In this document: positions 2,131 through 59,152 of the stretch, piece after piece | How the letters are laid out: each line of letters starts with the position of its first letter | How positions within the stretch are numbered: the first letter of the stretch is position 1 | Assembly (NCBI GenBank): GCA_035701545.1 | Contig: DASSRW010000077.1 | Coordinates: 688 to 64,687, forward strand | Direction of reading: 5' to 3' | Length of the DNA: 64,000 nt | Source: Pseudolabrys sp. | Lineage (GTDB): Bacteria > Pseudomonadota > Alphaproteobacteria > Rhizobiales > Xanthobacteraceae | Translations under genes and position numbers: made by a program | Notes under the pieces: generated by a model | Database searches by the model: none | The model's input: the letters and a program-made list of their open reading frames with translations, nothing else | What the model was told of the DNA's origin: nothing

Positions 2131-2150
2131 TTTCGCGGGGCGGTGTTCCA

Positions 2151-40652: not shown

Positions 40653-40677
40653 GGAACCGTCGCGCCGTTCCCGCGTT
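40653..40677 (+). promoter_or_regulatory. EcfG/sigmaT-type promoter GGAAC-N16-CGTT
   Basis: GGAAC cgtcgcgccgttcccg CGTT, about 100 bp upstream of the methyltransferase ATG. Confidence 0.65.
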
Positions 40678-40773
40678 CGTAAAAGGGATTTTCTGGCAGC
40701 AAGCAGGGCAGGTGATACGCGGCGCTCAACCGTACGGCGTCCCGACACGTGCACAAATCGCGCAAAGCGGACG

Positions 40774-41550
40774 ATGAAAATACTCGATTACGAGACAGAG
40801 CTGAAGATGCTTGAGCAGGCGATCAGGTCGCAGGCGCGTCCTGATGCAATTTTGCAGGTTCTTGAGGCCGGCTGCGGGCGGGAATGGTACTTTGAACTGG
40901 ACGGGGTCTCGTACGAGGTCACCGGAGTTGATCTGGACGCGCACGCGTTGCAATCCCGGCAAAGCCAAAAGCGCGATTTGAATCGTGGAATTGTCGGAGA
41001 TCTGCGTACCGTTAACCTGCCTGCCTCCCATTTTGACGTGATCTATTGCTCGTTCGTGCTCGAGCACATCCAGGGCGCGGCGCTCGCGCTCGACAATTTT
41101 GCAAAATGGCTCAAGCCGGGCGGCTTGCTGATTGTCCGGGTGCCTGATGTCACCGGCGTCCAGACGTTTCTCGCCAGGTCGCTGCCGCGCTGGTGCGCCA
41201 TCGCCTACTATCGCCACGCTTGGGGCATCAAGGATGCGGGAAAACCGGGTTTTGCGCCCTATCCCGCTTTTTACGATGATGTGATCTCGCCCTCCGGCTT
41301 CCACGCGTATTGCAACATCCGAGGCCTGGAAATTGCCGACGAGCTGGGCGTCGGCACATACAGATCGCGCGGGAGAGGGGTCCTTCGGCAGGTCCTGTCC
41401 GCCGCCGCAAGACTCGTCAGCATCGCGAGCGGCGGAAAAATTCACGATCGGTTCGTCGATCGGACATTTGTTGTCCGAAAGCCGGAGACACCGCTTTCTG
41501 CCGGCGCCAGGCGGCCGGAGGCTACAGAGCCACTGCTCGCTGGTGCATGA
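40774..41550 (+). CDS. Class I SAM-dependent methyltransferase
   Basis: VLEAGCG, TGVDLD, FDVIYCSFVLEHI, WLKPGG. Confidence 0.88.
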   Translation: MKILDYETELKMLEQAIRSQARPDAILQVLEAGCGREWYFELDGVSYEVTGVDLDAHALQSRQSQKRDLNRGIVGDLRTVNLPASHFDVIYCSFVLEHIQGAALALDNFAKWLKPGGLLIVRVPDVTGVQTFLARSLPRWCAIAYYRHAWGIKDAGKPGFAPYPAFYDDVISPSGFHAYCNIRGLEIADELGVGTYRSRGRGVLRQVLSAAARLVSIASGGKIHDRFVDRTFVVRKPETPLSAGARRPEATEPLLAGA

Positions 41551-43495
41551 CCGGCTCTCGGGCTGCAGTTTTCTGTCCAGCGAGCCACGCCTGAAGCGTG
41601 AGCACATTCCACAGCGGTGAGCACCATTCCTCTCGCCCTGGCGTTCTTGCCAGATGATCGCGCCAACGCGCGCGGACAAGTTCGGGCTGCAGAATGCCTT
41701 GCGAGCGGATGGAGTTCTCGTCGAGCAGATCGTCCGCCCAACGCCTGAGCGGTCCCCGCAGCCAGGCGGCGAGCGGGGGGACGAAACCCCATTTCGGACG
41801 CTCGAACAGCTTGCGCGGGACGTGACGCGCGAGAACGTCTCGCAGCAGCAATTTGCCTTTGCCGGCGTGCGCATGCTTTGCAGCGGGGAGCGACCACGCG
41901 AACGAAATGACCCTGTGGTCGAGCAACGGCACGCGCGCCTCAAGTCCGGCCGACATTGTGGCGCGATCCACCTTGGTCAGTACGTGGTCGGGGAGATAGG
42001 TCAGAAAATCGATCAGGCGGAGCCGGTCCACGAAATCCGGAACATCGTGGCTGCCCGCCGGATCCCAATGCAAGCCGTACGGCTCACTTGTGCCGAGCAC
42101 GAGTTTTTCGGGTCGCGGCCAATGGCTTTGGAGCTGCCGATAGAGCGCGAGGCCGTCTCCCTCATGCAGGAAGTTCGAAAGCTTGTGCCATTTGTCCTGC
42201 GCCCCGGGCGAGCTTAACGGCAGCAAGGAGCGGGCCATGTCGGAGTGTTCCGTCAATTTCGAGGCATGATCGAGCAGGGCGGCCAATCGCGGCCTGACCG
42301 GCCGCGGAATGCGGCTGAACATTCTCCACAATCGTTTGGCCTGGAAATATCGCGAATAGCCGGCAAACAGCTCATCACCCCCATCGCCCGAAAGGGCGAC
42401 AGTGACGTGCTCCCGCGTGAGCCCGGCCAGAAGGTATGTCGGTATCTGCGAGGGATCGGCAAAGGGCTCGTCGAAATAATAGCTGAGCCTTGGAACGATC
42501 TTCAGCAGATCGCCATCGTCAACATAGAGCTCGGTATGCGAGGTGCCGAGATGCGCGGCGACCTGCTTGGCGTGGACAGCTTCGTTGAAGTCATTGTTGG
42601 CGAAACCGATCGTGAACGTTCGAATCGGCCGCGGGCTGTTCGCCTGCATAAGAGCGACGACGGTCGACGAATCGATTCCGCCTGAAAGAAATGCTCCGAG
42701 CGGCACGTCGGAAATCATGCAGCGGCGCACCGCATCGCCGAGCAATTCCTCGAGCTCGTCGGTAACAGCAGATTTGACCGCCCGTTTCGGTTGCGCGGCG
42801 ATTTCTCGAATGTCCCAATAGCAGCGGTCCGTCACGCCCCCGCCGGCATCGATCGTGATGATGTGACCCGGTTCGAGCTTGTAAACATTCCGGTAAACGC
42901 TGCGCGGCGCCGCGATGTATCCATACCTCATAAACCCCGCGATCGCGTCGCGGTCGAGAGTGCCGTCAAAGCTCGGATGGCTGCGGATCGCTTTCAGTTC
43001 GGACCCGAAAAGGAAAACGGACCCGAAACGCGCCCAGTAGAGCGGCTTTATTCCCGCTCGATCGCGGACCAGCGTGAGGGCACGTCGTTCTTCATCCCAC
43101 AGGGCGAATGCAAACATGCCATTCAAGGCCTCGACACAGCGTTCGATGCCCCAGGCTACGCATCCTTCGACGATGACTTCGGTATCGGAATGACCGCGGA
43201 ATTTGACGCCCTTTGCCTTCAGCGACAGCCCCAGCTCCGTCGCGTTGTACACCTCGCCGTTGTAGGTGATCACAAACCGGCCGTTTGCCGAAGCCATTGG
43301 CTGACGGCCGGCAGGCGACAGATCGATGATTGCGAGGCGCCGATGACCCAGCGCGACGCCGGCCGCCGGATTCGTCCACACGTCTTCCCCGTCAGGCCCC
43401 CGGTGCGCCAAGCTTCTGGTCATCGCGGCTGCCGACGCGGCAAGCGTCTCGTCGTATGCGCCTCGCATGTCGAAGACGCCCGCGATTCCGCACAT
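41522..43495 (-). CDS. asnB: Asparagine synthase (glutamine-hydrolyzing)-type amidotransferase
   Basis: MCGIAG N-terminal Cys, HRGPD, NGEVYN, SDTEV, LSGGIDSS, SGDGGDELFAGY. Confidence 0.93.
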   Translation of the reverse strand: MCGIAGVFDMRGAYDETLAASAAAMTRSLAHRGPDGEDVWTNPAAGVALGHRRLAIIDLSPAGRQPMASANGRFVITYNGEVYNATELGLSLKAKGVKFRGHSDTEVIVEGCVAWGIERCVEALNGMFAFALWDEERRALTLVRDRAGIKPLYWARFGSVFLFGSELKAIRSHPSFDGTLDRDAIAGFMRYGYIAAPRSVYRNVYKLEPGHIITIDAGGGVTDRCYWDIREIAAQPKRAVKSAVTDELEELLGDAVRRCMISDVPLGAFLSGGIDSSTVVALMQANSPRPIRTFTIGFANNDFNEAVHAKQVAAHLGTSHTELYVDDGDLLKIVPRLSYYFDEPFADPSQIPTYLLAGLTREHVTVALSGDGGDELFAGYSRYFQAKRLWRMFSRIPRPVRPRLAALLDHASKLTEHSDMARSLLPLSSPGAQDKWHKLSNFLHEGDGLALYRQLQSHWPRPEKLVLGTSEPYGLHWDPAGSHDVPDFVDRLRLIDFLTYLPDHVLTKVDRATMSAGLEARVPLLDHRVISFAWSLPAAKHAHAGKGKLLLRDVLARHVPRKLFERPKWGFVPPLAAWLRGPLRRWADDLLDENSIRSQGILQPELVRARWRDHLARTPGREEWCSPLWNVLTLQAWLAGQKTAAREPVMHQRAVAL

Positions 43496-43637
43496 TACGA
43501 GCCGCTCCGCGTGCAGGCCTCTGCCTGGCGCATCAACTGGCCAAGGCTCCGCAGAACTCGGCTGCCGTAGCAAAACTCGGACAATCGCTGCAGCATGACG
43601 AATTCACGCGCGATGTGGTCTCTAAAACGCCGTCCCG

Positions 43638-44648
43638 TCACGCGACGGCTTGTTTATCCTGTAGGCCTTGTGCGGGCGGCTCGTTTTGCCGGCGGGCGCG
43701 TTCGAGCTCGATGTTGTTGACGAACCATGCGTAGACGTCCGCGATGCCTTCCCTGAGACGGCGGCGCGGCTGCCACCCGAGCGAGCGCAGAACCTCGGAG
43801 TTCAGCAATTTGCGCGGCGTTCCGTCCGGTCGCGTCGGATCGCGCTCGATGGCGCCCTTGAAGCCCACGACGTCGCAGACAAGTTTCGCAAGATCCAGGA
43901 TCGTTATGTCCTGGCCTGCGCCGATATTGACCGGCTGATCCCCCGAATAGGCTTTGGCGAGGTGCACGATCGCGTCCGCACAATCGTCGACGTGGAGAAA
44001 TTCCCGTCGCGGGGTTCCGCTTCCCCAGATGACGAGCTTGTCGGCGTTCCGGAGCTTTGCATCATGCGCCTTGCGGATGAGAGCCGGCAGCACGTGGCTC
44101 GAGTGAAGGTCGAAATTGTCCCCGGGGCCGTAGAGGTTGGTCGGCATCACGGACATGAAGGCGTCGCCATATTGCTTGCGGTAGGCCTGGACCAGCTTGA
44201 TGCCGGCGATCTTCGCTATCGCGTACCACTCATTGGTCTGTTCGAGCGGACCTGCAAGAAGCGCGTCCTCGGCAATGGGTTGCGGCGCCAATTTTGGATA
44301 GACGCAGGAAGAGCCAAGAAACACCAATCTTTCTGCCCCGACGCGGTGAGCGGCGGCGATCAGATTGGCCTCAATCATCAGATTGTCGTAGAGGAAATCG
44401 ACCGGATACGTCGTATTCGCTGCGATACCGCCGACCTTGGCCGCTGCAATAAACACGACCTGAGGACGGGTTTGAGCCATCCAGCTTTGGGTTTGTTGTT
44501 GCTGCGTCAGATCGACGTGCATGCGATCGGCTGTGACAATCTCGCAGTGCTCCGAGGCGAGCCGGCGCACGAGCGCCGATCCGACCATGCCGCGGTGGCC
44601 GGCGACAAAGACGCGCTTTCCCGCCAGAGAGTAGAAGGTGCCGCTCAT
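43638..44648 (-). CDS. fcl: GDP-L-fucose synthase
   Basis: [45 protein letters not shown]. Confidence 0.95.
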
Positions 44649-45724
44649 TCCGCAGCCTCGCGTAGATGGCCGATGTAGGCGTCGCGCTTCAGCGCGTCGA
44701 GATCGGATTGCAGCATCTCACGCACGAGCTCCGCAAAGCTTGTTGTGTGATGCCAGCCCAAGCGCTGACGCGCCTTTCCGGAATCGCCGACCAGCAAGTC
44801 AACCTCATTCGGCCGAAAGTACCGCGGATCCACCTCGACAAGAATTTCCCCCGTCCTTGCATCGATGCCTTTTTCATCGACTCCTTGGCCCTGCCAGGAA
44901 ATTGAGCGGTTGACCTCTTCGAAGGCAAGCTCGACAAACTCCCGCACCGAGTGACATTCGCCGGTGGATAGCACGTAGTCGTCGGGCTCGTCCTGCTGCA
45001 CGATCCGCCACATGCCTTCGACATAGTCGCGCGCATGCCCCCAGTCGCGCCGCGCGTTCAGGTTGCCGAGATAGAGCTTGCTCTGAAGCCCCAGCTCAAT
45101 CGCCGCAACGGCCCGCGTGATCTTGCGCGTCACGAAGGTCTCGCCGCGGATCGGGCTCTCGTGATTGAAGAGGATGCCGTTCGACGCGTGAATTCCGTAA
45201 GCCTCGCGGTAGTTCACGGTAATCCAGTACGCATATAGCTTGGCGGCGGCGTAGGGACTGCGAGGATAAAACGGCGTGGCCTCGCGCTGCGGCGTTTCCT
45301 GCACGAGGCCGTACAGCTCCGACGTCGATGCCTGGTAGAAGCGCGTTTTCTTTTCCATGCCCAGGATTCGGATCGCCTCGAGCAAGCGGAGCGGTCCTAT
45401 GCCGTCGGCATTGGCCGTGTATTCCGGCGTCTCGAACGACACCTTCACATGGCTTTGTGCGGCAAGATTGTAGATTTCGTCAGGCTGCGTCTGTTGCAGG
45501 ATGCGGATCAGGTTTGTCGAGTCGGTCAGGTCGCCGTAGTGCGTCAGAAATCGCAGGTTTCCCTCGTGAGGATCCTGATAAAGGTGCTCGATACGCGCTG
45601 AATTGAAGGATGACGAACGCCGGCGAAGGCCGTGAACAACGTAGCCCTTTGTCAGCAGGAGCTCGGCCAAATACGCGCCGTCTTGCCCCGTAACGCCGGT
45701 TACCAACGCAACTTTTCGGTTCAT
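44645..45724 (-). CDS. gmd: GDP-mannose 4,6-dehydratase
   Basis: [41 protein letters not shown]. Confidence 0.97.
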
Positions 45725-45947
45725 TGAGACCCCGCGGCCGCAATGGGCAAAAAATCAGCAGCCCCCGGCGACATTCAGTTCTCATAAGCCGGTGGTGGCG
45801 CGTTGGTTCCGTGGGGGGCTTGCCGCGGTCTTTTTTGAGAGCTTTCGAGGATACGCGCCGCGGTTGGCCGGCCGTGGCTTCACGCCGGAGTCGTTGCGGC
45901 AGTATGGCGGTACGGTACCAAGCCCGCGGCAAATATTTCCCGGTCGT

Positions 45948-45972
45948 GGAACTCGCCATTGCCTCGGACGTT
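45948..45972 (+). promoter_or_regulatory. EcfG/sigmaT-type promoter GGAAC-N16-CGTT
   Basis: GGAAC tcgccattgcctcgga CGTT immediately upstream of the GT2-wzx-ATP-grasp operon. Confidence 0.7.
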
Positions 45973-45987
45973 GGTCGGCGAGGGTAA

Positions 45988-47070
45988 TTGCTCGTCGATT
46001 CCTTGCACCGGGCGGCCGTTCGCGAAACTCCGCGGCGCGATCACTGTGGATCAATCGTGCCCATAACATCGGCAGAAGTATCGAATGTCAGCACCGCCTC
46101 CGGCTTCTCCGTTGCGCCTGCCGTCAGCATTGTCACTCCTTTCCACAATCGCGCATCCTTGTTGCCGGCGATCCTGCAAACGCTCGCGCAGCAAACCTTC
46201 CGGGAGTTTGAGCTTATTGTCGTCGACGACGGCTCGGAAGATGATCTGGGTCCGATTGTCGAGAAGGTCCGAACGGCTTTTCCGCTTCGGATGATTCGCC
46301 TCAGCCGCAACCTGGGCGCCGCTTCGGCAAGAAACGTCGGGCTTGAGGCAGCCGAAGGACGCTATGTCGCGTTCCTCGATAGCGATGATAGCTGGCACCC
46401 GGAAAAGCTGCGCCGGCAGTTCGATCACCTGAACCGCGCTTCGGACGGCGGTCGGCTCGTAAGTCTCACACGGCAGCTCGTCGTTGGCGCTCGCACCTAC
46501 GTTACGCCGCGCCGGCTGGCGCGGCGCAACGATTCGGTCGGCCGCTACTTATTCCAATGCGGCGGCGTCATACAGTCCAGCATGATATTTCTGCCTACCG
46601 GTCTCGCGAGGTCGGCGCGGTTCGCCGATGGTGCGCGGGGTCATGACGACTGGTCATTTGCGCTCCGGCTGGAGAACGTCGGCGCCAGATTCGAAATGCT
46701 TCCAGAGGTTCTGACGATATACAATGACGAGCAGGGACGCGCGCGCCGCTCGCCCGAATACTCTGAAAAACGATTTGAGTGGCTGCAGCAATCGCGTCAG
46801 CAGCTCGGCGAGGCGCCGTATCTGGCTGCGCGCGCCGCCTTTGCTTCGCGCATGGGCGCGCGGCGCTCGTTCGACTTGTTCCGCATGATCGTGGTTGCTT
46901 GCGTGCGCGGCGCAATATCGCCGTGGCGGGCCGGTTACTACGCGGCAAGCTTCGCTTTTCCCTCATTCAGGACTGCGTGCGTGCGCGCAAAGGAAATCTG
47001 GCTGAGCCTGCGCTTGCCGCGTGGTCCGGGAAGACCGGGAAAATCCCGATTTCGGCCAATCGTTCGATAG
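45988..47070 (+). CDS. GT2 family glycosyltransferase (start uncertain)
   Basis: VSIVTPFHN, IVVDDGS, ARNVG, FLDSDD. Confidence 0.9.
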   Translation: MLVDSLHRAAVRETPRRDHCGSIVPITSAEVSNVSTASGFSVAPAVSIVTPFHNRASLLPAILQTLAQQTFREFELIVVDDGSEDDLGPIVEKVRTAFPLRMIRLSRNLGAASARNVGLEAAEGRYVAFLDSDDSWHPEKLRRQFDHLNRASDGGRLVSLTRQLVVGARTYVTPRRLARRNDSVGRYLFQCGGVIQSSMIFLPTGLARSARFADGARGHDDWSFALRLENVGARFEMLPEVLTIYNDEQGRARRSPEYSEKRFEWLQQSRQQLGEAPYLAARAAFASRMGARRSFDLFRMIVVACVRGAISPWRAGYYAASFAFPSFRTACVRAKEIWLSLRLPRGPGRPGKSRFRPIVR

Positions 47071-47121
47071 GACGAAGGCGGCTCGAAACATTCCTCCAGC
47101 TCGCAATGAGCGCCCAATCAG

Positions 47122-48576
47122 ATGTCGCTGCAAAGTACCCTGAAATCCTTGATCTGGCCGTTCATCGAAGCGATCAGCGGAATACTCTCCGGTGCGGTCG
47201 CCGTGCTGGTCATCGCTCGAATTATCGGAGCGGAAGCGTTCGGGCTTGGATCGATTGCCCTGGGCGTCGTGCTGATCGCTCAGGTCGGCGTCAACAGCCT
47301 GGTCCACGATGCTTTGGTCCGCAGCGAACATCTCGTTCGCGACGACGTCGACGTCGGATTCACGGCGTCCGTTGTCGCGGCGATCGCTATCGGTCTGATT
47401 GTGGCGTCGGCGGCGCCGGTCGTTGCCTATTTCGTCAAGCACGACGCCATCACGATTCTCGTCTGGGCGTTCACGCCGATTCTCGTCTTCTCGGCCTTGC
47501 CAATGACGATGATCGCGGAGCGGCGGCGGGCGCTGGATTTCAACACCGTCGCGATCCACCAGATTATCGGGAGGAGCGTGGGTGTGGTGCTCGGGGTCGG
47601 AGCGGCACTGGAAGGCGCCGGCGTCTGGAGCCTCGTCATCCAGTACACCTGCGCGAGCATGTACATGGCGATCGCGATGTACGCGCTGGCGCCGCGCTGG
47701 CCGCGCCTGCGTTTCTCATGGGAACGGCTCGCACCCATGCTCAGTTTTTGCTCGCCGATCATTGCAAGCCAGTTGATGATCTACGCGACCAACTGGTTCT
47801 TTCTCTTCACGATGGGCCGCTGGCACGGGCTCGGCGCGGCCGGGCACTGGAGCGTCGCCATGCGGCTTGCGGACGGCCTGTTCGGCGGCATCATGCAGGC
47901 GGCCTACCAGGTGGCGTTGGCAAGTCTTGCGCTGCATCAGGCCGCGCGCGAGCGGTTGAGAGACGCGCTGGTGAAGGGACAGGCGCTGTCCGGATTGGTG
48001 GCGATTCCCTTGCTGGTGGCGCTGGCCGCCGCGGCCGAGCCGCTTTTGCAGTTGCTGCTGGGGCCAGGCTGGGGTCCGGCGGGACAGCTGGCCTTGGGCC
48101 CTTTGGTCGGGTCGTTTCTCTTTCTGCGGCAGATCCTGCCGAGCACCGCGCTGCGCGTGATCGGCATCTCGGCCGTCTCGCTGGCTGCGACGCTTGCCAA
48201 CGCGGCGACCGCGTGCGCCGGCCTTGTCCTGTTTGGCCATTACTCCCCACTGGCGATAAGCGCGGTATACGCGCTCTCGATCCTGCCCGGCTACTCGCTG
48301 ATCTATTTCGTGGCCGCGCGCAAATTTTCTCTGCCGGTCGAGCGCGGGCTTGCCGCGCTCGGACGCGATCTCGCTTTGGCGATGATGGCGTTTGCGTTGG
48401 CCCGAAGCATCACCGGCCAGCTTCACAGCCCGTCATTGCTGCTGAAAGTCGCGGTCGCCGGCTCGACGGCGTTTCTGGTTGCGGCAGTGTTGCTGGCGCT
48501 GTCGCAGCGAAAGTTCTTTCAGGCCGTGCTTGTTGCCGAATTGAAGGGCGCTGGCGCTGAAAACAAAATCCGATGA
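47122..48576 (+). CDS. Wzx-type oligosaccharide flippase
   Basis: About 12-14 hydrophobic segments; GVWSLVIQ, LLGPGW; polysaccharide context. Confidence 0.88.
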   Translation: MSLQSTLKSLIWPFIEAISGILSGAVAVLVIARIIGAEAFGLGSIALGVVLIAQVGVNSLVHDALVRSEHLVRDDVDVGFTASVVAAIAIGLIVASAAPVVAYFVKHDAITILVWAFTPILVFSALPMTMIAERRRALDFNTVAIHQIIGRSVGVVLGVGAALEGAGVWSLVIQYTCASMYMAIAMYALAPRWPRLRFSWERLAPMLSFCSPIIASQLMIYATNWFFLFTMGRWHGLGAAGHWSVAMRLADGLFGGIMQAAYQVALASLALHQAARERLRDALVKGQALSGLVAIPLLVALAAAAEPLLQLLLGPGWGPAGQLALGPLVGSFLFLRQILPSTALRVIGISAVSLAATLANAATACAGLVLFGHYSPLAISAVYALSILPGYSLIYFVAARKFSLPVERGLAALGRDLALAMMAFALARSITGQLHSPSLLLKVAVAGSTAFLVAAVLLALSQRKFFQAVLVAELKGAGAENKIR

Positions 48577-49646
48577 CCGGGACTGTGGCCGGAGGGATAG
48601 GGACGATGACATCAGGAAGCAAAGCGCCCGATTCACCGTCGCGAACGTCGCTCCGGAGCGACGTGTTTTCCTTTTTGTACAAGACACTGCCCTATGCGCC
48701 GTCCGTCGATCGCCTTCTGCTGCTGGCGCGCTTTGTTCGCGCACACAATCGCATTCCACGCAATCCGGCCCGGACCGGCGCCACCTTCAACGATCTGATC
48801 TTCGGCCGGTTGGTCAAGGCAGACTGGAACAATCTCGAGCGATTTTGCATCGACAAGGAGTACGTCAAGTTTTTCGCGCAGGGCGTCTGTCCCGATGTAA
48901 GAACGGCGCGGACAGTCGATGTCATTCGTTTCGACCGTGAAGCGGGGTTCGAGGCCGCCGAATCCGTCCTGCTCGCCCGTGCCGGGACCGATCTCGTTGC
49001 GAAACCCACCCACGGATCGGGAATGGTCCTTTTCCTCCGCAAGACTCCGTTGCGCGAGGAGATACATCGTTTCTGTGTGGCAGCCTCGGAGTCGTATTAT
49101 CGGCGGTCACGCGAAAATCTGTATGCAGGACTGGAACGCAAAATCCTTCTTGAAGAGGACCTTTCCGAGGACGAGCAGCCGCCTGTCGACTACAAGTTTT
49201 TCTGCGCCCGCGGAAAGGTATTGTTTGGCCAGATCGACGTCGACCGTTTCGCCCACCACCAGCGGGCTCTTGTGACCCCTGCTTTCGAGCGGATGGACGT
49301 GCGCTACATGCACGACACGCCGACCCGGCCGTTGGGCCGGCCCGCCAACTTTGAGCAGATGGTCGACGCGGCAGCAAAGCTCTCCAGGTTCTTTTCCTTT
49401 GTGCGAGTCGACCTCTATTCCGTTCGCGGCGCAGTCTTTCTCGGCGAGCTCACGCTCGCGCCCGAAGGCGGCGCGGGATCGCTGTCCGACGAAAGCTTCG
49501 GTGCGCGCGTGATGGCGGACATACGGAAGGCCAACGAGGGCGGCAGACCGGCCTTCGCCGGAACGGCGTTTCCGGAAGACAAGCCGCTGGTCTCCGGAGG
49601 TGAGCGGCGGAAGCGGCGGGGGCGCCTTGCAGGAGGACAGCTTTGA
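48573..49646 (+). CDS. TupA-like ATP-grasp protein
   Basis: IDKEYVK, VAKPTHGSG, LLEEDL...PVDYKFFC..GK...QIDVDRF, FVRVDLY, GELTLAP.GG. Confidence 0.8.
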   Translation: MTGTVAGGIGTMTSGSKAPDSPSRTSLRSDVFSFLYKTLPYAPSVDRLLLLARFVRAHNRIPRNPARTGATFNDLIFGRLVKADWNNLERFCIDKEYVKFFAQGVCPDVRTARTVDVIRFDREAGFEAAESVLLARAGTDLVAKPTHGSGMVLFLRKTPLREEIHRFCVAASESYYRRSRENLYAGLERKILLEEDLSEDEQPPVDYKFFCARGKVLFGQIDVDRFAHHQRALVTPAFERMDVRYMHDTPTRPLGRPANFEQMVDAAAKLSRFFSFVRVDLYSVRGAVFLGELTLAPEGGAGSLSDESFGARVMADIRKANEGGRPAFAGTAFPEDKPLVSGGERRKRRGRLAGGQL

Positions 49647-51079: not shown

Positions 51080-51151
51080 GGCACAAGGGCAGGGTCATTC
51101 TTGCGCCTTGTTGCGGCGCTCAAATTGGCGGTGCTTGTAGCGGAGAAGAGC

Positions 51152-52303
51152 ATGGGCAAGAACAGGCTTAGAGCCCTGCCGGGCAAGCTGGACGCCAACG
51201 GCACGCAACGCGAGAATGTGAGCTTCTCGGACGCGAGCGGCCTCATCTGGCAGAGCGCCTCATTCGTCTTTTGCCGGCGCAATGCGAAGCTCATCTCGGT
51301 TTTTGCGATCATCGGGCTGGCGATTGGTATTTCCTATCTCTCGCTTGCGCCCGCGATGTTCACGGCCAAAGCGCAGTTGTTGATCGAGCCGAAGCTGCCG
51401 CAATTTTTGCAGGAGAACGCCAGCGACTCGAGTCACGTCCTCGACAGCTCGCAACTGGAAAGTCATATGGTGCTTCTGCAGTCCGAACGCGTCGCGACGG
51501 CGGTGATCGAAAAACTGAACCTGTTGCACGACCCTGAATTTCAGGAGCAATCCGGCTGGGCCGAACGAGGATTGAGCGAGCTCGGCCTGGTGAAGGACGG
51601 AAAGCTTCCGGACAGCCTCGACTTTCTTTCTCCGCTGGTCGCGCGCGGAGACGGAAAGGACCCGATGCAGACGGCGGTGAAGCGATTTGCGGACCACTTG
51701 CGCGTCCGCCGGATCGGTATTTCGTACGCAGTCGAGGTGGCGTTTTCTTCACGCGATGCCGCAAAGGCGGCGAGGATCGCAAATGCGACAACCGACGCTT
51801 ATTTGCAGACGCTGATCGACTTCCGCGCCGATGCGGCGCGCGTCGCCAGTCAGTGGCTGGAAGACCGGCTTGCCCAGCTCAGGGTCCAGATGAATGCTGC
51901 AAACATCCGGGCGCAGCGATTCAAGGCAGCGCAGGATTACCGCATTGTGAAGCCGTCGGACCCTCCGAAGCCCGTCACGGATGGCATCGACAAAACAACC
52001 GCATCACCAGGCGGCGGCCAGACGACGCTCGACGAGCTTGAGCTGACGGCGGACACCTATCGGAAAGTGTATCAGAATTTCTTCAGCGCCTTCACCGAGG
52101 CCGTGCAGCGGGAATCCTATCCGGTTTCCAATGTGCAGGTAGTCTCAAAGGCCGTTGCGCCCGATCACAAGAGCTCGCCGAAGACGCTGATCGTTCTTGC
52201 TCTGGCGCTGGCCGTCGGCGCCTTCATCGGCGCCTGCTTCGCGCTGCTTCGCGACGTCTTTTCGCATCGCCCTCCGGATTACCCCTTGCCGGAAAAGACC
52301 TGA
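51152..52303 (+). CDS. Polysaccharide co-polymerase (Wzz/GumC/ExoP N-terminal type) without kinase domain
   Basis: Two TM segments flanking a periplasmic coiled coil; Pro-rich APDHKSSPK before TM2; no Walker A. Confidence 0.85.
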   Translation: MGKNRLRALPGKLDANGTQRENVSFSDASGLIWQSASFVFCRRNAKLISVFAIIGLAIGISYLSLAPAMFTAKAQLLIEPKLPQFLQENASDSSHVLDSSQLESHMVLLQSERVATAVIEKLNLLHDPEFQEQSGWAERGLSELGLVKDGKLPDSLDFLSPLVARGDGKDPMQTAVKRFADHLRVRRIGISYAVEVAFSSRDAAKAARIANATTDAYLQTLIDFRADAARVASQWLEDRLAQLRVQMNAANIRAQRFKAAQDYRIVKPSDPPKPVTDGIDKTTASPGGGQTTLDELELTADTYRKVYQNFFSAFTEAVQRESYPVSNVQVVSKAVAPDHKSSPKTLIVLALALAVGAFIGACFALLRDVFSHRPPDYPLPEKT

Positions 52304-52314
52304 GAGGCCAATTC

Positions 52315-53400
52315 GTGCCCCGGCCGAAGCGTATTTGGGTGGCAACCCCCTATGGCAAAGATGGAATGGGAGGCATCGACCGGCTGAATGATGCGATCTT
52401 TGATGCCGTCGGCCGCCGTCCTCAGCTGGGTTTTCAATGCGTTCGGCTGGTGACCCGCGGGAAGCGAGGATTGCTCTCGGCCCAAGGCGTGTTCGCATCT
52501 GCGCTGCTGCGATTCTGCATGGCGGCGTGGAGAGGCGACGTCGATTTGCTGCATATCCATCTTTCGAACGGCGGCAGCAGCTATCGCAAGGCGGTGCTCG
52601 GCAAATTCGCGAGGGCGCTCCGAATCCCTTACGTGGTGCACTTGCATGGCATCCAGTTTCGGGAATTCTGGGCGAGCACGAACCCGCTTCTCCAGGTGGA
52701 GCTGGAGCGGCTGCACGAGGGTAGCGCGCGCATTGTTGTACTGGGCAAGTACTGGGCCGAGGTGATCCTCGAGCGTTTACCGGATCTTGCCGCCCGGATT
52801 GTCGTGCTTCCCAATGCGACCGCGCTCACCCCGCAGGTTTGCCGCAGCAAGCGTGAGCAAGGCAAGGTACAGATCACCTTTCTGGGAAAGCTGGGTACGA
52901 GGAAGGGCGTACCCGATCTGATCAGGGCACTGAGCCGCCTGGCGAATCTGCCGGATTGGTCGGCGACGATTGCGGGCGACGGCGAGATCGCGGAGGCCAA
53001 AGCGCAGGCGCAACAACTCGGCATTGCCGCGCGCGTCGAAATTCCCGGCTGGCTCGACGTTGCAGCCCGCGAAAAGTTGCTGGCAAGAACGGACATACTC
53101 GTTCTGCCGTCTTATGCGGAAAATCTGCCCATGGTGATTGTCGAGGCGTTCGCGTGCGGTCTGGCGGTGATTGCGACTCCGGTCGGCGCGATACCCGAAG
53201 TGATCGTGGATGGCGACACCGGGCTCCTGGTGCAGCCGGGAGACGACGCCGCGCTGGCGAGCGCGATCGAGCGGCTCGTGAAGGAGCCCGGTCTGCGCAG
53301 CTTGTTGGGAGAGGGCGCGCGGCGGATGTATCGGGAGCGCTTCGAATTCGATCGTTATATCGGGCAGCTGGCCGAAATCTGGCGTCAGGCGACTAACTGA
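52315..53400 (+). CDS. GT4 family glycosyltransferase
   Basis: RKGV, LPSYAENLPMVIVEA (EX7E), GDTGLLVQPGD. Confidence 0.92.
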   Translation: MPRPKRIWVATPYGKDGMGGIDRLNDAIFDAVGRRPQLGFQCVRLVTRGKRGLLSAQGVFASALLRFCMAAWRGDVDLLHIHLSNGGSSYRKAVLGKFARALRIPYVVHLHGIQFREFWASTNPLLQVELERLHEGSARIVVLGKYWAEVILERLPDLAARIVVLPNATALTPQVCRSKREQGKVQITFLGKLGTRKGVPDLIRALSRLANLPDWSATIAGDGEIAEAKAQAQQLGIAARVEIPGWLDVAAREKLLARTDILVLPSYAENLPMVIVEAFACGLAVIATPVGAIPEVIVDGDTGLLVQPGDDAALASAIERLVKEPGLRSLLGEGARRMYRERFEFDRYIGQLAEIWRQATN

Positions 53401-54688
53401 AGGGTGTTGTCTGGCTCGGCTGCTTTGCAAGCACGAGCATTCCAGCGAGCGCCGCAGCGAGAAGCGCGTTCAAGTTGTTCGGCAGAATGATTGTCGTTTC
53501 GACGAAGTTGTGAATGACGATGATCGATATCACGGCTAGCGGAAAAACGGCGGGACGCGGTTCATGTACGTGCATCGTGAGCATGTGGCGGGCCGCGCAA
53601 AAGATCAGCCATGCAACCACTGCAACGCAAACCGCCAGGCCGGCGTAGCCGAGATAGATGAACGTCTCGAGATAGCCGTTGTGGGCGCTTCCGAAGCTCG
53701 TCTGCAGCAGCGCCGACACTTCGCTGTCGAGCGTGAAGAAGCCCGTAAAGTAACCGCTGCCGAACAGCGACGGCGTTTTTTCAACGATCTGGAGGATGAA
53801 ATACCACAGAAGCGTTCGTCCCGTCAGGTCGCTGTCTCGGTCGAGAAGGTGCAAAGCCCAAGCCGCAATCTCGTCCCGCAGCAGCAGCAGCACGACGGCC
53901 GCAAGGGCGACAATCAGCGCAAAAATTCCCTTGTGGGCGGGAGACTGCCGGCAAAACGCGAGAAGCACCAGGCTGAGCGCCGTCATTACCGCTGCGATGA
54001 CAAATCCGGTGCTCGAACGCGCCCCCACGAGGCATGCAACAGCCGCAAGCAGTGCAACGCCGCGCGTCGTCAAATGGCTGAAACAGTCGCGGCCAAAGAC
54101 CAGGACAACCGCGAACGCGACCCCTGCCCACAGGCCGAGCGTGTTGCGGTGGCCAAAAATCCCTCGCCAGGCGCCCGCATGGATGGCCTGGATTGCATCG
54201 CCCGGCTGATGCACGCCATACAACGGATAAACGACAACCATCGCGCAACTGAGCACGCAGGCCAGACTCAGGCCGCGCCCAATCAGCGCGATCAGGTCGC
54301 GTCTGGCGTACGCGGCGCCGAGCGACAAACCGAACACTGTCGTTCCGGCAAAAGCGCCGGCCCGGCGCAGCGAGAGCAAGGGGTCGGGCGACCAGACGGT
54401 CGACAGCATGGCAAGCAACGGCAACAGGAGAATCGGCCAGGCGCGCGTCAGGACGGGCGTCATGTTCCTGTTGCCAAGCAGAAGCAGGCTTCCGGAGCAG
54501 TAGAAAAAGGCGAGAATGGTTTGCGAGAGGGCGGAGCCGGCGCCGGGCTCCGATGCGAGTCTAAGATCCGCGCCTGATGTCACCAACACGAAGCCGCCGC
54601 CGACGAACAGAAAGCCTGTCAGGTAAAACGCGTAGAGCAGCCTGTTCAGAGGTACAGCCGACGACCTGAGGTCTATCGCAACGGTCAT
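53393..54688 (-). CDS. Wzy polymerase / O-antigen ligase family (ExoQ-like)
   Basis: Multi-TM; WRGIFGHRNTLG, DLTGRTLLW, SAHNGYLE. Confidence 0.85.
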   Translation of the reverse strand: MTVAIDLRSSAVPLNRLLYAFYLTGFLFVGGGFVLVTSGADLRLASEPGAGSALSQTILAFFYCSGSLLLLGNRNMTPVLTRAWPILLLPLLAMLSTVWSPDPLLSLRRAGAFAGTTVFGLSLGAAYARRDLIALIGRGLSLACVLSCAMVVVYPLYGVHQPGDAIQAIHAGAWRGIFGHRNTLGLWAGVAFAVVLVFGRDCFSHLTTRGVALLAAVACLVGARSSTGFVIAAVMTALSLVLLAFCRQSPAHKGIFALIVALAAVVLLLLRDEIAAWALHLLDRDSDLTGRTLLWYFILQIVEKTPSLFGSGYFTGFFTLDSEVSALLQTSFGSAHNGYLETFIYLGYAGLAVCVAVVAWLIFCAARHMLTMHVHEPRPAVFPLAVISIIVIHNFVETTIILPNNLNALLAAALAGMLVLAKQPSQTTPFS

Positions 54689-54701
54689 GACCAAACGCCG
54701 G

Positions 54702-55544
54702 TTACGGCTGCCGGCCGAGCGACCGCGGCAGGCGCAGATCCAGCAGGCTGAGAAAAACGAAGCGTGGGGCCAAATAGAGGTAGCGCCACCAAAGCCTGCG
54801 CGGCTCGGAAAGCAGGCGATACAGCCACTCCAGTCCGTTTGACCGCATCCATGCCGGCGCGCGCTTCAGGCGCCCGCTATGGAAATCAAAGGCCGCCCCG
54901 ACACCGATTGCGATGAGATTGTTGAGCTTCCCGATATTCTGCAGCATCCAGATTTCTTGTTTGGGGCAACCGAGACCAACCCACAAAATATCCGGTGCTG
55001 TCTCGTTGATCCGATCGACTGCTGCGGTCGCTTCCTGCTCGGACAGTTCACGAAAAGGCGGGCAATCGACGCCCACGATGAGCAGGCCGGGATACAACGC
55101 CCTGGCCCTTCGTGCGAGCTCATCCGCCACTCCCTGGGATCCGCCGTAGAAGTAGTGACGCCACCCCATCTTTGCCGAATGCTCCAGCAGGCGGAGCATC
55201 AGGTCAGGGCCGCAGACGCGTTCAATCTGCCTTTCTCCACGCAGCCTCGACAGCCAGACGACCGGCATGCCGTCGGGAAGGATCATCGCTGCATGGCGCA
55301 GCGCCTTCCTGTGCAACGGATCGTCGCGCGCGCGCATGATGCTGTGGACGTCGGCAGCGCAGATGTAACGGCTCGCTTTTGCTTCGATCCACCGGGCGAC
55401 GGTATCGATCACCTGGTCCATGTTGAGTGCGGCCACGCCAACGCCGAGTATTCGGACCGTTCGCGGAGCAGTCGATTGCGGATGCGGCTGATGAACCACC
55501 TCTTCGCAAGATACGTCTGGATTGCGTAAAAGCATAATAAGCAA
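54702..55544 (-). CDS. WecB/TagA/CpsF (GT26) glycosyltransferase
   Basis: PDGMPV, RVCGPDL, WVGLGCPKQE, GVGAAFDF, GLEWLYRL..EPRRL. Confidence 0.92.
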   Translation of the reverse strand: MLIMLLRNPDVSCEEVVHQPHPQSTAPRTVRILGVGVAALNMDQVIDTVARWIEAKASRYICAADVHSIMRARDDPLHRKALRHAAMILPDGMPVVWLSRLRGERQIERVCGPDLMLRLLEHSAKMGWRHYFYGGSQGVADELARRARALYPGLLIVGVDCPPFRELSEQEATAAVDRINETAPDILWVGLGCPKQEIWMLQNIGKLNNLIAIGVGAAFDFHSGRLKRAPAWMRSNGLEWLYRLLSEPRRLWWRYLYLAPRFVFLSLLDLRLPRSLGRQP

Positions 55545-55565
55545 CTTCTACTGAAATGGTCGCGT

Positions 55566-56939
55566 CTATCTGGATTGCGCGTCTCGGGGTTGAAGCGGCT
55601 GCGCCTGCAAGGAGGCCTCGGAGGTTGCTTCGGCCGGCTGGCTGCCGCAGCATTTGACCTTGATCGTGTCGCCGGGCTGCACGAGCGTCGTTTCCGTTGC
55701 GGGAAATTCCGCGAAGTTCTTTCCGGCGCGCCGGATGATCGAAAAGCTCAGCTGCGCGCTCACCCAAATCGGTGCAATCTTGTCGGATTCGGCGACCAGG
55801 CTCCGGTCGGTGGCCATTTTGACTCCGATCTGCTCGAGCCTTGCGCGCGTCGAATTCAGGTCGCCGACGACGCTTTCCCTGAACTTCGATCGAAGCTCCA
55901 TGAGCGACGTGTCGGCCTTGCTCAGCTCTTCGATCGTCCCCTTGAGCCGGCTTTTCAGGCGGAGCGATTCGCCTTCCGTGGTCGCCGCTTCCCGTTGTGC
56001 GGTCAAATAGCGCTGCTCGGTGACGAGCCCGCTTTTCTGCTTCTTGTCGACTTCCTGCTTGTCCTGTTGCGCCAGCGCGAGCAGCTTGTCCTGCTGCTGG
56101 ATTTGCGCCTTGATTGAATTGACCTCACCCGTCAAATAATTCTTCACTTGCTGAAACGATTGCGCGCTGATTTCCAGCGCATGCTTGCGCGCTTTAAACA
56201 ACAAGCGCTCCTGCGCCATCGCTGAGGTCGCCTGCTTGTCCCCGTGCTCGGCCAAAGACGATGGAAATTTGATGTCGTCTTGGCCGTTCAGCTCGGCGTC
56301 CAGCCGGGCCGCTCGTGCCAGCAGGGCCGTTCGCTCGCCGGCAAGCTCGTTCAATTCGCCGGTCCAGCCGACAATCTCGCGCTCGATTTGATGGACATCG
56401 ATTGCATGACTACGCGGCAGCCCGCCGGCTATCGCCATCGCTTGAATGACGGTCATCCCGGGCCGAAACGAATATTCGCCGGAGGTCGCCACATCGCCCA
56501 CGATATAGAAGGGCCGGAATTTGATGATCTCGACCGAAGCATCCGGCCTTTGAGCGATGTTGATCCGCTCCTGCAGCCGCTCGGAAATCAGTCGGGCCAG
56601 TTCGCCCGTGGTGGCATCGGCGGCCTGGACCTCGCCGACGAGCGGCAGGGATATTTTCCCGGCGGCATCGATCGTATAGTCGCCGTTGACGGATTGCCAT
56701 TCGAACACCTCGGCCTGGGACGGTCGCCACGCCACGATCTTGAGGCGAATCTGATCAAACGGACCGAGGTGGTATTCGGAACGCGCAGACGCGGTCTTGT
56801 CAGCCTGCTCTTGAATTTGCGCGAAGCCGGGCTGGAGGGGGCAAAGTGTCACGGCAAGCGCGAACGTCGTCGCCAGCGCGAGAAGCTGGCCGCGACGCTG
56901 GCAGCGCGAGGGAGCGAGTTCGGACATACGAGTGCTCAT
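55566..56939 (-). CDS. Polysaccharide export OPX protein (ExoF-like with coiled-coil extension)
   Basis: EYHLGPFDQIRL, GKISLPLVGEV, RPFYIVGDV..GEY.FRPGMTV.QA.A.AGG, VQPGDTIKV; start at MSTRMSE. Confidence 0.85.
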   Translation of the reverse strand: MSTRMSELAPSRCQRRGQLLALATTFALAVTLCPLQPGFAQIQEQADKTASARSEYHLGPFDQIRLKIVAWRPSQAEVFEWQSVNGDYTIDAAGKISLPLVGEVQAADATTGELARLISERLQERINIAQRPDASVEIIKFRPFYIVGDVATSGEYSFRPGMTVIQAMAIAGGLPRSHAIDVHQIEREIVGWTGELNELAGERTALLARAARLDAELNGQDDIKFPSSLAEHGDKQATSAMAQERLLFKARKHALEISAQSFQQVKNYLTGEVNSIKAQIQQQDKLLALAQQDKQEVDKKQKSGLVTEQRYLTAQREAATTEGESLRLKSRLKGTIEELSKADTSLMELRSKFRESVVGDLNSTRARLEQIGVKMATDRSLVAESDKIAPIWVSAQLSFSIIRRAGKNFAEFPATETTLVQPGDTIKVKCCGSQPAEATSEASLQAQPLQPRDAQSR

Positions 56940-57187
56940 AGGCGCGTCCCCAAAGTCTCCGCAGATACGAAAAAAACGTGTGACTCCCGGTGGATCGGCG
57001 GCAGCATTGGGTCTTGCTGTTCGGGAGAGGCAGCAGGATACCGGCGCCCCCGAACAGTTCGAATTAAGAACTAATTGGCTAATTCGGGGTTCCGATCCGT
57101 AAACGCATTTCCGGGCGCGCAACGTCGCAACGCGAACAAGCCGGCATCCCGTTCCGGTCAGGCGACGCGATTTCAGCGCCGGGCCGT

Positions 57188-57589
57188 TCAGTCCAGGTAC
57201 TGCGCCGGCTTTGTCTCCAGCTGAAATATCCAAAGCAGCAGCGTCGCGGCGGCTGCAATCGCGGCGATCAGAAAGAATCCGACCAGCCGGCCAAACTCTT
57301 GATAGACAAACCCGTCGTAAGCGTGCTGACCGATGCTGCCAGGCCGGACATTGCGCGGACCGCGCCGCGGGCGAAATTGAAACGCCCGTTGCCGGTCGTC
57401 AGGTCGGTTATCACGAGCACGGTCAACACGGTCACGATCGCGCTGGTCACGTCAGCGCGAGGACCAGGATGATTGCGGAGCCGCCAATCAGCACGATGCC
57501 GAGTGCGACCAGGGCGCGCTTGCCGACGCGACGCCCTGGAAGCGCGGGGAGATCGCGCCGACAACACCCGCTTTGTTTGCGAACTGCAT
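57188..57589 (-). pseudogene. Decayed MFS transporter (internal deletion plus frameshift)
   Basis: Fragments KRALVALGIVLIGGSAIILVLA, TSAIVTVLTVLVITDLTTGNGRFNFARGAV and, after a frameshift near 57312, GFVYQEFGRLVGFFLIAAIAAAATLLLWIFQLETKP read as MFS TM segments with the typical terminal ETK motif. Confidence 0.65.
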
Positions 57590-57673
57590 TGCAACGGATC
57601 CTCTCACGTCGCGAACTCAGCCTTTCGGCTCTGCCGTTTCGCCGTTTCCGAAGATCGACATCTGGCCTCGATC

Positions 57674-58792
57674 TCACTCGTGCGCAGAGAGCGCATTCAG
57701 AATGAGGCGGCCGGCTTCGGCGACATTCTGATTGCCGCGGTTGGTGAGGATCACCAGGCCGAGCTTGCGCTCGGGGATGAGGCCGAGATAGGTCGATGAG
57801 TTGTTCAGGCCGCCGTTCTTTTCGACGATCGGCGGATTGCTGTTGTAGTTGATCTCCCAGGCGAGGCCTTGGCCGTTTTTCGGGCTGATGGCGAAAAGGT
57901 CCTGCTGGGCGCGCCGCATGCCCTTTGCCAGCGCGGGATCAATGCGGAGCTCGCCGAGATTGGCGGCGACAAAGACGGCAAGGTCGCGTGCCGACGAGTA
58001 CATCTGCCCGGTGCCCGGAAAGTGATAGTAGGTCTGCTGGTCGCCGGGCTCTCCGATGCGCTCGCCCGATTCCGAATAGCCCTGGACGGCGCGTGCCATC
58101 AAATCCGGAGGAAGCTTCGCGCGTCCGTCGGCGCCGCGCGGCGGCAGCATCGTGGCGTGGAGACCGAGCGGCGCAATGATGCGCTTCTGCAGGAGCTCGG
58201 CAATCGGCTTGCCGAAGCGGCGCTCGAGCGCGAGCTGCAGCAGCACGTAACCCGCATGCGTATAGATGTGCTGCTTGCCCGGCGCCTGCTCGTCATCCTC
58301 CCGCCAGCGGTTCAGCGTGTCGATGAATTCAGGCAGCGTATATCCGCGGTCGGGCCAGGGCGGATGATCCTGCGGCAGCAGCAGGCCCGACGTATGCGTC
58401 GCCAATTGTCCGAGGGTGACGCGGCGAATGTCTTGCCCATGCTGAAGCTCGGTAACGTATTTCGCGACAGGATCGTCGAGGCTGAGCTCGCCTCGGTTTG
58501 CCGCCTCCGCGAGCAGGACGGCCTCAAATACCTTGCGGACCGACGCGAGATTAAAGAGCGAGTCGGAGGTGACGGGATGGCCGCTGGCATGGTCGGCCCA
58601 TCCATAGTTGAAAAACACCGTCCGCCCATCGATGCGGACCGCCACCGCGGCCCCCGTGTTTGAAATCAGGAGCGGCTGCACGCGACGCGCGACCAGATGC
58701 TCAATCTCGTCCCGCGTCGGCGTTGCACTGGTCGCAGCCATTGTGATGGCCACCGCGAGAATCGCTGGGCACGCCAGGAGCAGCCGGCTCAT
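57674..58792 (-). CDS. Class C beta-lactamase-like serine hydrolase
   Basis: Signal peptide; FNLASVRK (SxxK), LATHTSG, YTH at the YxN position, EKNGG at the KTG position. Confidence 0.82.
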   Translation of the reverse strand: MSRLLLACPAILAVAITMAATSATPTRDEIEHLVARRVQPLLISNTGAAVAVRIDGRTVFFNYGWADHASGHPVTSDSLFNLASVRKVFEAVLLAEAANRGELSLDDPVAKYVTELQHGQDIRRVTLGQLATHTSGLLLPQDHPPWPDRGYTLPEFIDTLNRWREDDEQAPGKQHIYTHAGYVLLQLALERRFGKPIAELLQKRIIAPLGLHATMLPPRGADGRAKLPPDLMARAVQGYSESGERIGEPGDQQTYYHFPGTGQMYSSARDLAVFVAANLGELRIDPALAKGMRRAQQDLFAISPKNGQGLAWEINYNSNPPIVEKNGGLNNSSTYLGLIPERKLGLVILTNRGNQNVAEAGRLILNALSAHE

Positions 58793-58848
58793 ACCGGCTG
58801 CAACCCGGCAGCGCGTATCGCGGTTCCTCTTTCCGGCCGGCGCGAGTT

Positions 58849-59100
58849 TTAATGCGCCGTGCCGGCCGGCTTGGGCGACGTGGTTCCGGATCCGGTCGTG
58901 GCCGGCGGCGTCGGCGACGATTTGCTCACGGCCGGCGTGTTATTCGAGGCCGTGCCGGTGTTCCTGCCGGTATTTGCCCACGAAAATATGACGATAATCG
59001 CTATCAGAATGAGCAGTCCGACGATCCAGCCGGTGTAGGTCGTGCCGCCGGCTGCCCGCCGGCTCGTGCGGTTCAGATTGGGGTCGTCAGGAAAGGTCAT
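58849..59100 (-). CDS. Small single-TM protein with Ser/Thr/Pro-rich tail
   Basis: 83 aa; WIVGLLILIAIIVIFSW TM; GGAG RBS; EcfG motif upstream. Confidence 0.8.
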   Translation of the reverse strand: MTFPDDPNLNRTSRRAAGGTTYTGWIVGLLILIAIIVIFSWANTGRNTGTASNNTPAVSKSSPTPPATTGSGTTSPKPAGTAH

Positions 59101-59127
59101 GGGTCGCCTCCATTGGTTTCAGGGACC

Positions 59128-59152
59128 AACGTGGCGGTGGCGGCGACGTTCC
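59128..59152 (-). promoter_or_regulatory. EcfG/sigmaT-type promoter GGAAC-N16-CGTT
   Basis: Minus strand GGAAC gtcgccgccaccgcca CGTT, 27 bp upstream of the ATG at 59100. Confidence 0.75.

Follow-up and report, generated by a model that had tools for sequence, protein, structure and literature searches.

Predicted EcfG-type stress promoters in front of genes of a Wzx/Wzy-type polysaccharide locus in a Pseudolabrys genome

Does the general stress response of alphaproteobacteria directly control the genes for a surface polysaccharide in the soil bacterium Pseudolabrys? The question is raised by a 64-kb stretch of DNA (hereafter the window; C77:688-64687 of a 3.71-Mb, 283-contig Pseudolabrys metagenome-assembled genome, or MAG, with 63.8% GC), in which several transcription units of an exopolysaccharide (EPS) locus are preceded by exact or near copies of the motif GGAAC-N16-CGTT. 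In the partner switch of the general stress response, stress leads to the phosphorylation of PhyR, which then captures the anti-sigma factor NepR and frees the sigma factor EcfG, a member of the extracytoplasmic function (ECF) group ECF15. The freed EcfG directs RNA polymerase to a GGAAC (-35) and a CGTT (-10) box that are 16-17 nt apart, and transcription starts a few nt downstream of CGTT. A preliminary description of the window proposed that three perfect promoters of this kind define a local regulon that includes the EPS locus, and that all four EPS transcription units may be switched on together. Our analysis indicates that the three perfect sites are likely to be EcfG-type promoters, and that a methyltransferase gene and a six-gene operon headed by a family-2 glycosyltransferase (GT2) gene are very likely direct EcfG targets; the wider claims, concerning the remaining units and the local nature of the regulon, fared less well.

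The motif itself is identical to the EcfG1 motif of Rhizobium etli, GGAAC-N16-CGTT (PMC3892343), and fits that of Sphingomonas melonis EcfG, GGAAC-N17-20-GTT (PMC6599016), which bears out its assignment to the alphaproteobacterial EcfG consensus. An exact scan of both strands of the window recovered the three previously described matches with the same coordinates, placement and orientation, and no other match on either strand and hence none in coding regions; widening the spacer to N15-18 added a single N18 site. All three exact sites lie between genes and are oriented towards the gene that follows, at distances of well under a few hundred nt, with 97 nt separating the -10 box from the methyltransferase ATG (40774), 85 nt from the GT2 GTG (46057) and 28 nt from the ATG (59100) of a gene for a small protein of 83 aa. 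Dinucleotide shuffles of the window gave an expectation of 0.50 matches and reached three in one of 100 cases, in agreement with the earlier estimate of under one chance match per window. The genomic density of the motif nevertheless predicts 1.1 matches in any 64 kb; hence, the strength of the case lies in the position, orientation and conservation of the sites rather than in their count in the window.

To place these sites in their genomic context, GGAAC-Nx-CGTT was counted as exact strings for x = 10-23 across the whole genome, and coding and noncoding DNA were separated with a gene call of our own based on codon usage (3391 genes, 86.7% coding). There are 66 matches with N16 and 54 with N17, as against 17-37 for each of the other spacers. 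The difference becomes much sharper in noncoding DNA, with 48 (N16) and 31 (N17) matches versus 2-7, and persists among noncoding matches that are correctly oriented and lie <=300 nt from a called start, with 29 and 23 versus 1-3. Thus, the genome-wide scan that had been suggested as a check came out in favor of the motif: among the spacers tested the enrichment is confined to 16 and 17, and it falls mostly in noncoding DNA. Given this spacer-specific noncoding enrichment, an intergenic and correctly oriented N16 match is about 90% likely to be non-random. Variants of the -10 box that retain GTT are likewise over-represented in noncoding DNA, with 8 N16 matches for AGTT versus 2.2, 9 for TGTT versus 3.0, and 13-15 at N16/17 for GGTT versus 2.6 (15 at N17), as would be expected from the S. 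melonis motif with its GTT core.

The partner switch expected to act on such sites is encoded in the same genome. A nepR gene (60.5 bits) is immediately followed by an ECF sigma factor gene (Sigma70_r2/r4), and divergent from this pair, on contig C34, is phyR, whose product combines PhyR_sigma2, PhyR_sigma-like and Response_reg domains. A perfect N16 site is found upstream of phyR and a GGAAC-N17-GTTT upstream of nepR, so that the genome-wide signal extends to apparently autoregulated regulator genes, while a Ku gene with an upstream motif directly follows ecfG. The first open reading frames (ORFs) after the 58 other sites include, besides Ku, two DUF892, a LemA, two BA14K and two DUF1236 proteins, short-chain dehydrogenases and a five-PAS HisKA_2/HWE kinase, which is a typical alphaproteobacterial general-stress set. 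The resulting catalogue of 79 motif sites can serve as a first outline of the regulon in an organism that has not been cultured.

Conservation of the sites was assessed by searching for the GT2 orthologue in 227 other Pseudolabrys species genomes (E<=1e-50). It was found in a single one, denoted G133, in which the locus from the methyltransferase to the gene for the outer-membrane polysaccharide export protein (OPX) is complete and retains the same order and orientation, with 50-90% amino acid identity (lowest for OPX). The 22-kb EPS region of G133 contains exactly two GGAAC-N16-CGTT sites. One (L037:4860) is 120 nt before the methyltransferase start, compared to 121 nt here, and the other (L037:10022) 107 nt before the first tblastn-aligned GT2 residue, compared to 109 nt here. 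At both sites all nine box positions are identical and the spacing is exact, whereas the spacers agree at 6 of 16 (methyltransferase) and 7 of 16 (GT2) positions, and the upstream flank of the GT2 site in 37 of 100 columns. With a background identity of ~40%, retention of nine of nine positions has a probability of roughly 0.4^9, i.e. of the order of 10^-4 per site. The third site, in front of the small-protein gene, can be compared with G133 and with the closest relative, denoted G094, in which this region shows 69% and 80% DNA identity, respectively. When the three species are aligned, GGAAC and GCCACGTTGG do not vary and N16 is kept, whereas 17 of 100 upstream columns are identical. All three sites are hence retained in G133, and that of the small protein also in G094; the retention of the boxes in G133 is the strongest sequence-level evidence for their function. 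With the regulator genes and the genome-wide signal, the window promoters display every sequence-level feature of the EcfG family.

Several observations weigh against this reading and suggest alternatives to it. Firstly, the motif has a real background, since 18 of its 66 N16 matches (27%) are in coding DNA, and the presence of the EPS locus in one other species alone makes the evidence for each EPS site a two-species comparison. This background, along with the expectation of about one match per 64 kb noted above, is what one would predict if the matches were chance occurrences in GC-rich intergenic DNA devoid of promoter function. However, chance would not account for the noncoding excess of N16 over the control spacers, nor for the independent retention of boxes and exact spacing in G133 and G094 within flanks that are about 40% identical. 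The chance explanation is already disfavored and we consider it very improbable.

Secondly, the genome encodes a second EcfG-like sigma factor (C100:7680-8120, minus strand), which is 43% identical to the nepR-linked EcfG, and contains four more ECF-like matches, any of which could recognize this motif or one that overlaps it. The sites could then be functional but served by another sigma factor, with the EPS locus responding more narrowly, for instance to stress at the envelope or surface. There is precedent for such arrangements: the ECF26 factor RpoE6 of Sinorhizobium meliloti shares many targets with RpoE2 and recognizes a similar motif (PMC6180224), and paralogous EcfG factors divide regulons in R. 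etli (PMC3892343). Nevertheless, the occurrence of the identical motif before phyR, Ku and the HWE/HisKA_2 kinase gene is the canonical signature of PhyR-NepR-EcfG, and base counts do not set the three window sites apart from the bulk of the 79 genomic sites. We accordingly favor EcfG itself and regard recognition by a different sigma factor as unlikely.

Thirdly, the link between EcfG and polysaccharide genes is not a general one. When orientation was checked, GGAAC-N16/17-NGTT was found upstream of just one of 28 other Pseudolabrys Poly_export genes, which speaks against EcfG sites being a regular feature of OPX genes across the genus and suggests that the link is lineage- and locus-specific. 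Moreover, no GGAAC-N15-18-NGTT precedes GT2 in the fetched flanks of related cassettes from Aestuariivirga and other Hyphomicrobiales, and no listed perfect N16/17 site fits the range of one of these loci (L042 of genome G246, with contig C2 taken as the record). In these cassettes, which come from Aestuariivirga, other Hyphomicrobiales MAGs and soil metagenomes (L040-L044 and L078-L081), the genes for GT4, in some cases the methyltransferase, GT2, Wzx, the TupA-like ATP-grasp protein and DUF1565 form one co-directional operon; the Wzz gene is upstream of the cassette in L040-L044, as is WecG where the fetched flank reaches. Since GT2 is internal to the operon, these cassettes offer no promoter position comparable to that in Pseudolabrys, where the same cassette genes are divided among four divergent or convergent units.

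The genes downstream of the sites constitute, going by their domain content, a Wzx/Wzy-type polysaccharide locus that is fucose-related (Table 1). The names methyltransferase, gmd, GT2 and OPX given in the preliminary description were all borne out by Pfam. The locus encodes a flippase (Polysacc_synt_3), a polymerase (Wzy_C), a polysaccharide co-polymerase (Wzz+GNVR) and an OPX protein (Poly_export+SLBB), together with nucleotide-sugar enzymes (gmd, fcl-like) and three glycosyltransferases (GT2, GT4 and one of the WecG family). An initiating phosphoglycosyl transferase is absent from the window, the only two Bac_transf genes of the genome being on contigs C215 and C74; hence, priming must come in trans. 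The methyltransferase forms a unit of its own, but we count it in the polysaccharide gene set because its homologue lies within the co-directional cassette of Aestuariivirga MAGs (L040, L042). As a separate observation on these cassettes, the 330 nt directly upstream of GT2 in L078-L080 resemble the 3' end of a co-directional gene, which by eye looks like the C-terminus of a sugar transferase.

Table 1. Genes and candidate promoters of the polysaccharide locus and its surroundings (window positions)
Feature	Position	Strand	Basis or remark
Predicted EcfG-type promoter, methyltransferase gene	40653-40677	+	exact GGAAC-N16-CGTT; conserved in G133
S-adenosylmethionine-dependent methyltransferase, 258 aa	40774-41550	+	Pfam Methyltransf_11/23; single-gene unit convergent with asnB-like
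gmd - fcl-like epimerase/reductase - AsnB-like amidotransferase operon	41522-45724	-	Pfam GDP_Man_Dehyd, Epimerase, Asn_synthase+GATase_7
asnB-like	41522-43495	-	
fcl-like	43638-44648	-	
gmd	44645-45724	-	
Weak candidate GGAAC-N16-GCTT	45786-45810	-	62 nt upstream of gmd; read from sequence
Predicted EcfG-type promoter, GT2 operon	45948-45972	+	exact GGAAC-N16-CGTT; conserved in G133
Six-gene GT2 operon	46057-53400	+	Pfam; intergenic gaps <=86 nt; syntenic in G133
GT2	46057-47070	+	
Wzx flippase	47149-48576	+	
TupA-like ATP-grasp	48663-49646	+	
DUF1565 beta-helix-like	49643-51079	+	
Wzz/GNVR co-polymerase	51101-52303	+	
GT4	52339-53400	+	
OPX - WecG-family glycosyltransferase - Wzy polymerase operon	53393-56939	-	Pfam Poly_export+SLBB, Glyco_tran_WecG, Wzy_C; syntenic in G133
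Wzy polymerase	53393-54694	-	
WecG-family glycosyltransferase	54702-55436	-	
OPX	55566-56939	-	
Relocated candidate promoter of OPX operon, GGAAC-N16-AGTT	57069-57093	-	130 nt upstream of ATG 56939
Earlier candidate before OPX, GGAAC-N18-CGTT	57129-57155	-	probably no promoter
Major facilitator superfamily (MFS) transporter gene remnant (C-terminal part)	57187-57600	-	between hydrolase gene and OPX operon
Beta-lactamase-family serine hydrolase, 372 aa	57674-58792	-	Pfam Beta-lactamase
Candidate GGAAC-N17-GGTT	58802-58827	-	near-consensus; 10 nt before hydrolase ATG
83-aa protein, one predicted membrane helix, Ser/Thr/Pro-rich tail	58849-59100	-	no Pfam family
Predicted EcfG-type promoter, small-protein gene (possibly with hydrolase)	59128-59152	-	exact GGAAC-N16-CGTT; kept in G094 and G133
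liv-type ABC transporter operons (two)			flanking the whole region

Taken together, these features lead us to propose that under stress EcfG would directly switch on the polysaccharide methyltransferase gene and the six-gene GT2-Wzx-ATPgrasp-DUF1565-Wzz-GT4 operon, as well as the neighboring but separate gene for the small membrane protein, possibly along with that of the beta-lactamase-family hydrolase. The OPX-WecG-Wzy operon would probably be EcfG-driven too, from a site other than the N18 one, while the gmd-fcl-asnB operon has a doubtful site alone. Under stress the cell would thereby make and export more of a polymer that is fucose-related and possibly methylated and amidated. We infer from this the EcfG reading of the sites, their induction by stress and the nature of the product as a protective coat: the bacterium probably makes a surface polysaccharide as part of its stress response, and a role of this polymer in protection, for instance against desiccation, is plausible.

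How far this control might extend across the locus depends on the two units that lack a perfect site. For these the preliminary description had named weaker variants, GGAAC-N18-CGTT before OPX and GGAAC-N16-GCTT before gmd, both of which are present as letters but are poorly supported as promoters. The N18 spacing is not enriched in the genome (19 matches, of which 2 are noncoding versus about 5 for control spacers), and the site before OPX aligns with no motif in G133. A GGAAC-N16-AGTT lies 36 nt downstream of it, and the homologous position in G133 is occupied by GGAAC-N16-TGTT. In light of this alignment and of the enrichment of NGTT boxes at N16/17 we moved the candidate for the OPX operon to this site, and the balance tilts modestly towards its being an EcfG promoter. 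As for gmd, the GCTT class is not enriched in noncoding DNA (8 at N16 and 9 at N17 versus about 5.6), and G133 has GGAAC-N17-AGTT at 58 nt before the gene (L039, minus strand, 2761), with the -35 box kept and the -10 box not. That the gmd site is an EcfG promoter is thus doubtful.

These results bear on a more restricted form of coupling, in which EcfG would drive the GT2 operon and the methyltransferase gene so as to boost or modify the polymer under stress, while gmd-fcl-asnB and OPX-WecG-Wzy run from housekeeping or other promoters. Stress would then change how much polymer is made or how it is decorated, and not act as a switch for the whole pathway. This would fit the lack of enrichment of the GCTT class at gmd, the replacement of the N18 site at OPX by one that is near-consensus, and the location of the priming phosphoglycosyl transferase genes outside the locus. 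Conversely, GGAAC is kept at equivalent distances before both gmd and OPX in G133, and a sigma-70 consensus scan of 40-59.4 kb yielded no intergenic promoter, but two weak matches that are both inside genes and are fewer than those in shuffled sequences, so that the scan carries little information. We give this restricted coupling somewhat less than an even chance. The earlier suggestion of a joint switch for all four EPS units is accordingly well supported for two of them, plausible for the OPX operon and weak for the gmd operon, and joint control of the four by EcfG is possible, though we put it forward tentatively.

To speak of a local regulon defined by the three perfect sites turned out to be an overstatement. 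The genome contains 11 triplets of sites within 18.5 kb versus 1.8 at random, and seven contigs, including that of the window, carry three or more sites; the other clusters include one of five sites in 8 kb on contig C110 and one in the phyR-nepR-ecfG neighborhood on C34. We therefore rejected the idea that the cluster in the window is special. Furthermore, the unit of the small protein and the hydrolase is separate from the EPS locus. The gene for the small protein, which is preceded by a GGAGG ribosome-binding site, is conserved in its coding sequence in G094 and G133, and in both it is followed by the hydrolase gene. In G133, however, the pair is on a different contig from the EPS locus, and in G094 it stands beside a different polysaccharide island; being thus unlinked, the small protein does not belong to the EPS unit. 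The near-consensus site in front of the hydrolase gene has a GGAAC-N16-GGTT counterpart in G094 and none in G133, and from a location so close to the ATG it would give a transcript with little or no leader.

The remnant of an MFS transporter gene lies between the OPX operon and the hydrolase gene. Its positions 57187-57447 match, with 86% identity, the 3' end of an MFS_1 gene that is intact in G094 (424 aa; L034:16566-17840), which points to a deletion or rearrangement at the border of the polysaccharide island. At the same chromosomal position G094 has a completely different polysaccharide gene set (L034, G094:C60:38500-58400), coding for GT4, a deacetylase, DUF6492, GH10, an acetyltransferase, Wzy, GT2, WecG, OPX and Wzz. 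The presence of a different gene set in the closest relative, beside conserved MFS, hydrolase and small-protein genes, implies that the position behaves as a hypervariable polysaccharide island. The G094 island has perfect sites of its own, an N16 site before GT4 and an N17 site 108 nt before OPX. Likewise, in the genome under study perfect N16 sites (4891 and 19009; L149, L150, L210) precede an Acyl_transf_3 gene and a GT4 gene of a second polysaccharide locus, on C215. Given these sites in the G094 island and the C215 locus, polysaccharide genes appear to be a recurrent class of predicted EcfG targets in this lineage. A broader proposal would have the stress sigma factor directly drive the whole Wzx/Wzy pathway via four separate promoters (those of the methyltransferase gene and of the GT2, OPX and gmd operons). 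In view of the same two loci, it would also have any polysaccharide island at this variable site acquire EcfG promoters in this Pseudolabrys lineage, with mobile, hypervariable cassettes being captured by the stress regulon time and again; the Aestuariivirga cassette shows no such promoter before GT2. This scenario stays on the speculative side of even. As a side observation, the C215 locus also encodes a Bac_transf priming transferase, a short OPX protein and a BBP2 beta-barrel porin.

Compared to the characterized EcfG promoters (those of R. etli EcfG1, S. meliloti RpoE2, Caulobacter crescentus SigT and S. melonis EcfG), the Pseudolabrys sites have identical boxes and the same spacer of 16-17 nt. 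The phyR, nepR and ecfG genes are similarly present and motif-bearing, and the predicted regulon similarly contains Ku, DUF892, LemA, BA14K and HWE kinase genes. The differences are that the host is an uncultured Pseudolabrys, known here from sequence alone, and that several of the targets are Wzx/Wzy structural genes, which do not belong to the classic core-regulon class. In Gammaproteobacteria, too, a general-stress sigma factor, RpoS, ties the production of a protective extracellular polymer to stress or to stationary phase. However, RpoS is a group 2 sigma-70 factor rather than a member of ECF15, and its control of matrix and capsule is mostly indirect, via regulators such as CsgD.

The nearest parallel comes from S. 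melonis Fr1, in which a glycosyltransferase/'exopolysaccharide biosynthesis' operon (#3505-3509) is EcfG-dependent by RNA-seq and a lacZ fusion (PMC6599016). The study took that operon, which has no good motif, to be a putatively indirect target (PMC6599016). The tie between polysaccharide genes and EcfG, predicted in the present case, is shared by the two bacteria, but in Pseudolabrys consensus promoters stand directly in front of the units, and for this reason control would be direct and exerted through multiple promoters. With an EcfG-dependent EPS operon already known from S. melonis, a Wzx/Wzy locus controlled directly from several promoters would extend the known picture modestly, and the stress-promoter reading of the locus is a solid but fairly ordinary regulon prediction that leaves the understanding of how PhyR-NepR-EcfG works unchanged. 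If true, it would nonetheless exemplify direct control of EPS genes by EcfG more clearly than S. melonis, where the control is putatively indirect. It would make an identifiable polysaccharide locus a direct output of the stress switch in Pseudolabrys, a widespread but poorly studied soil genus, and offer a molecular handle on how soil bacteria survive drying or osmotic shock.

A few further features of the region deserve mention. Conservation in G133 favors the GTG taken as the GT2 start over a TTG at 45988, which G133 does not share. The 85-nt leader of the GT2 operon (45973-46056, plus strand) is better conserved with G133 than the DNA upstream of the promoter, and is possibly a protein-binding site that would add a second layer of control. 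A structured RNA was considered for this leader and rejected, as its folding energy is no better than that of shuffled sequences (z = +1.16). The leader also holds the palindromes TTCGCGAA and CCGCGG. Two more GGAAC-N16/17-AGTT matches are found in the window, one at 47721-47746 (plus strand) within the Wzx coding sequence, which is probably due to chance, and another at 2125-2149 (minus strand). Finally, a fourth perfect site on the same contig, GGAAC-N17-CGTT (C77:64707-64732, plus strand; L211), is located 20 nt past the end of the window and is followed by an ORF for a protein of 102 aa without a Pfam family.

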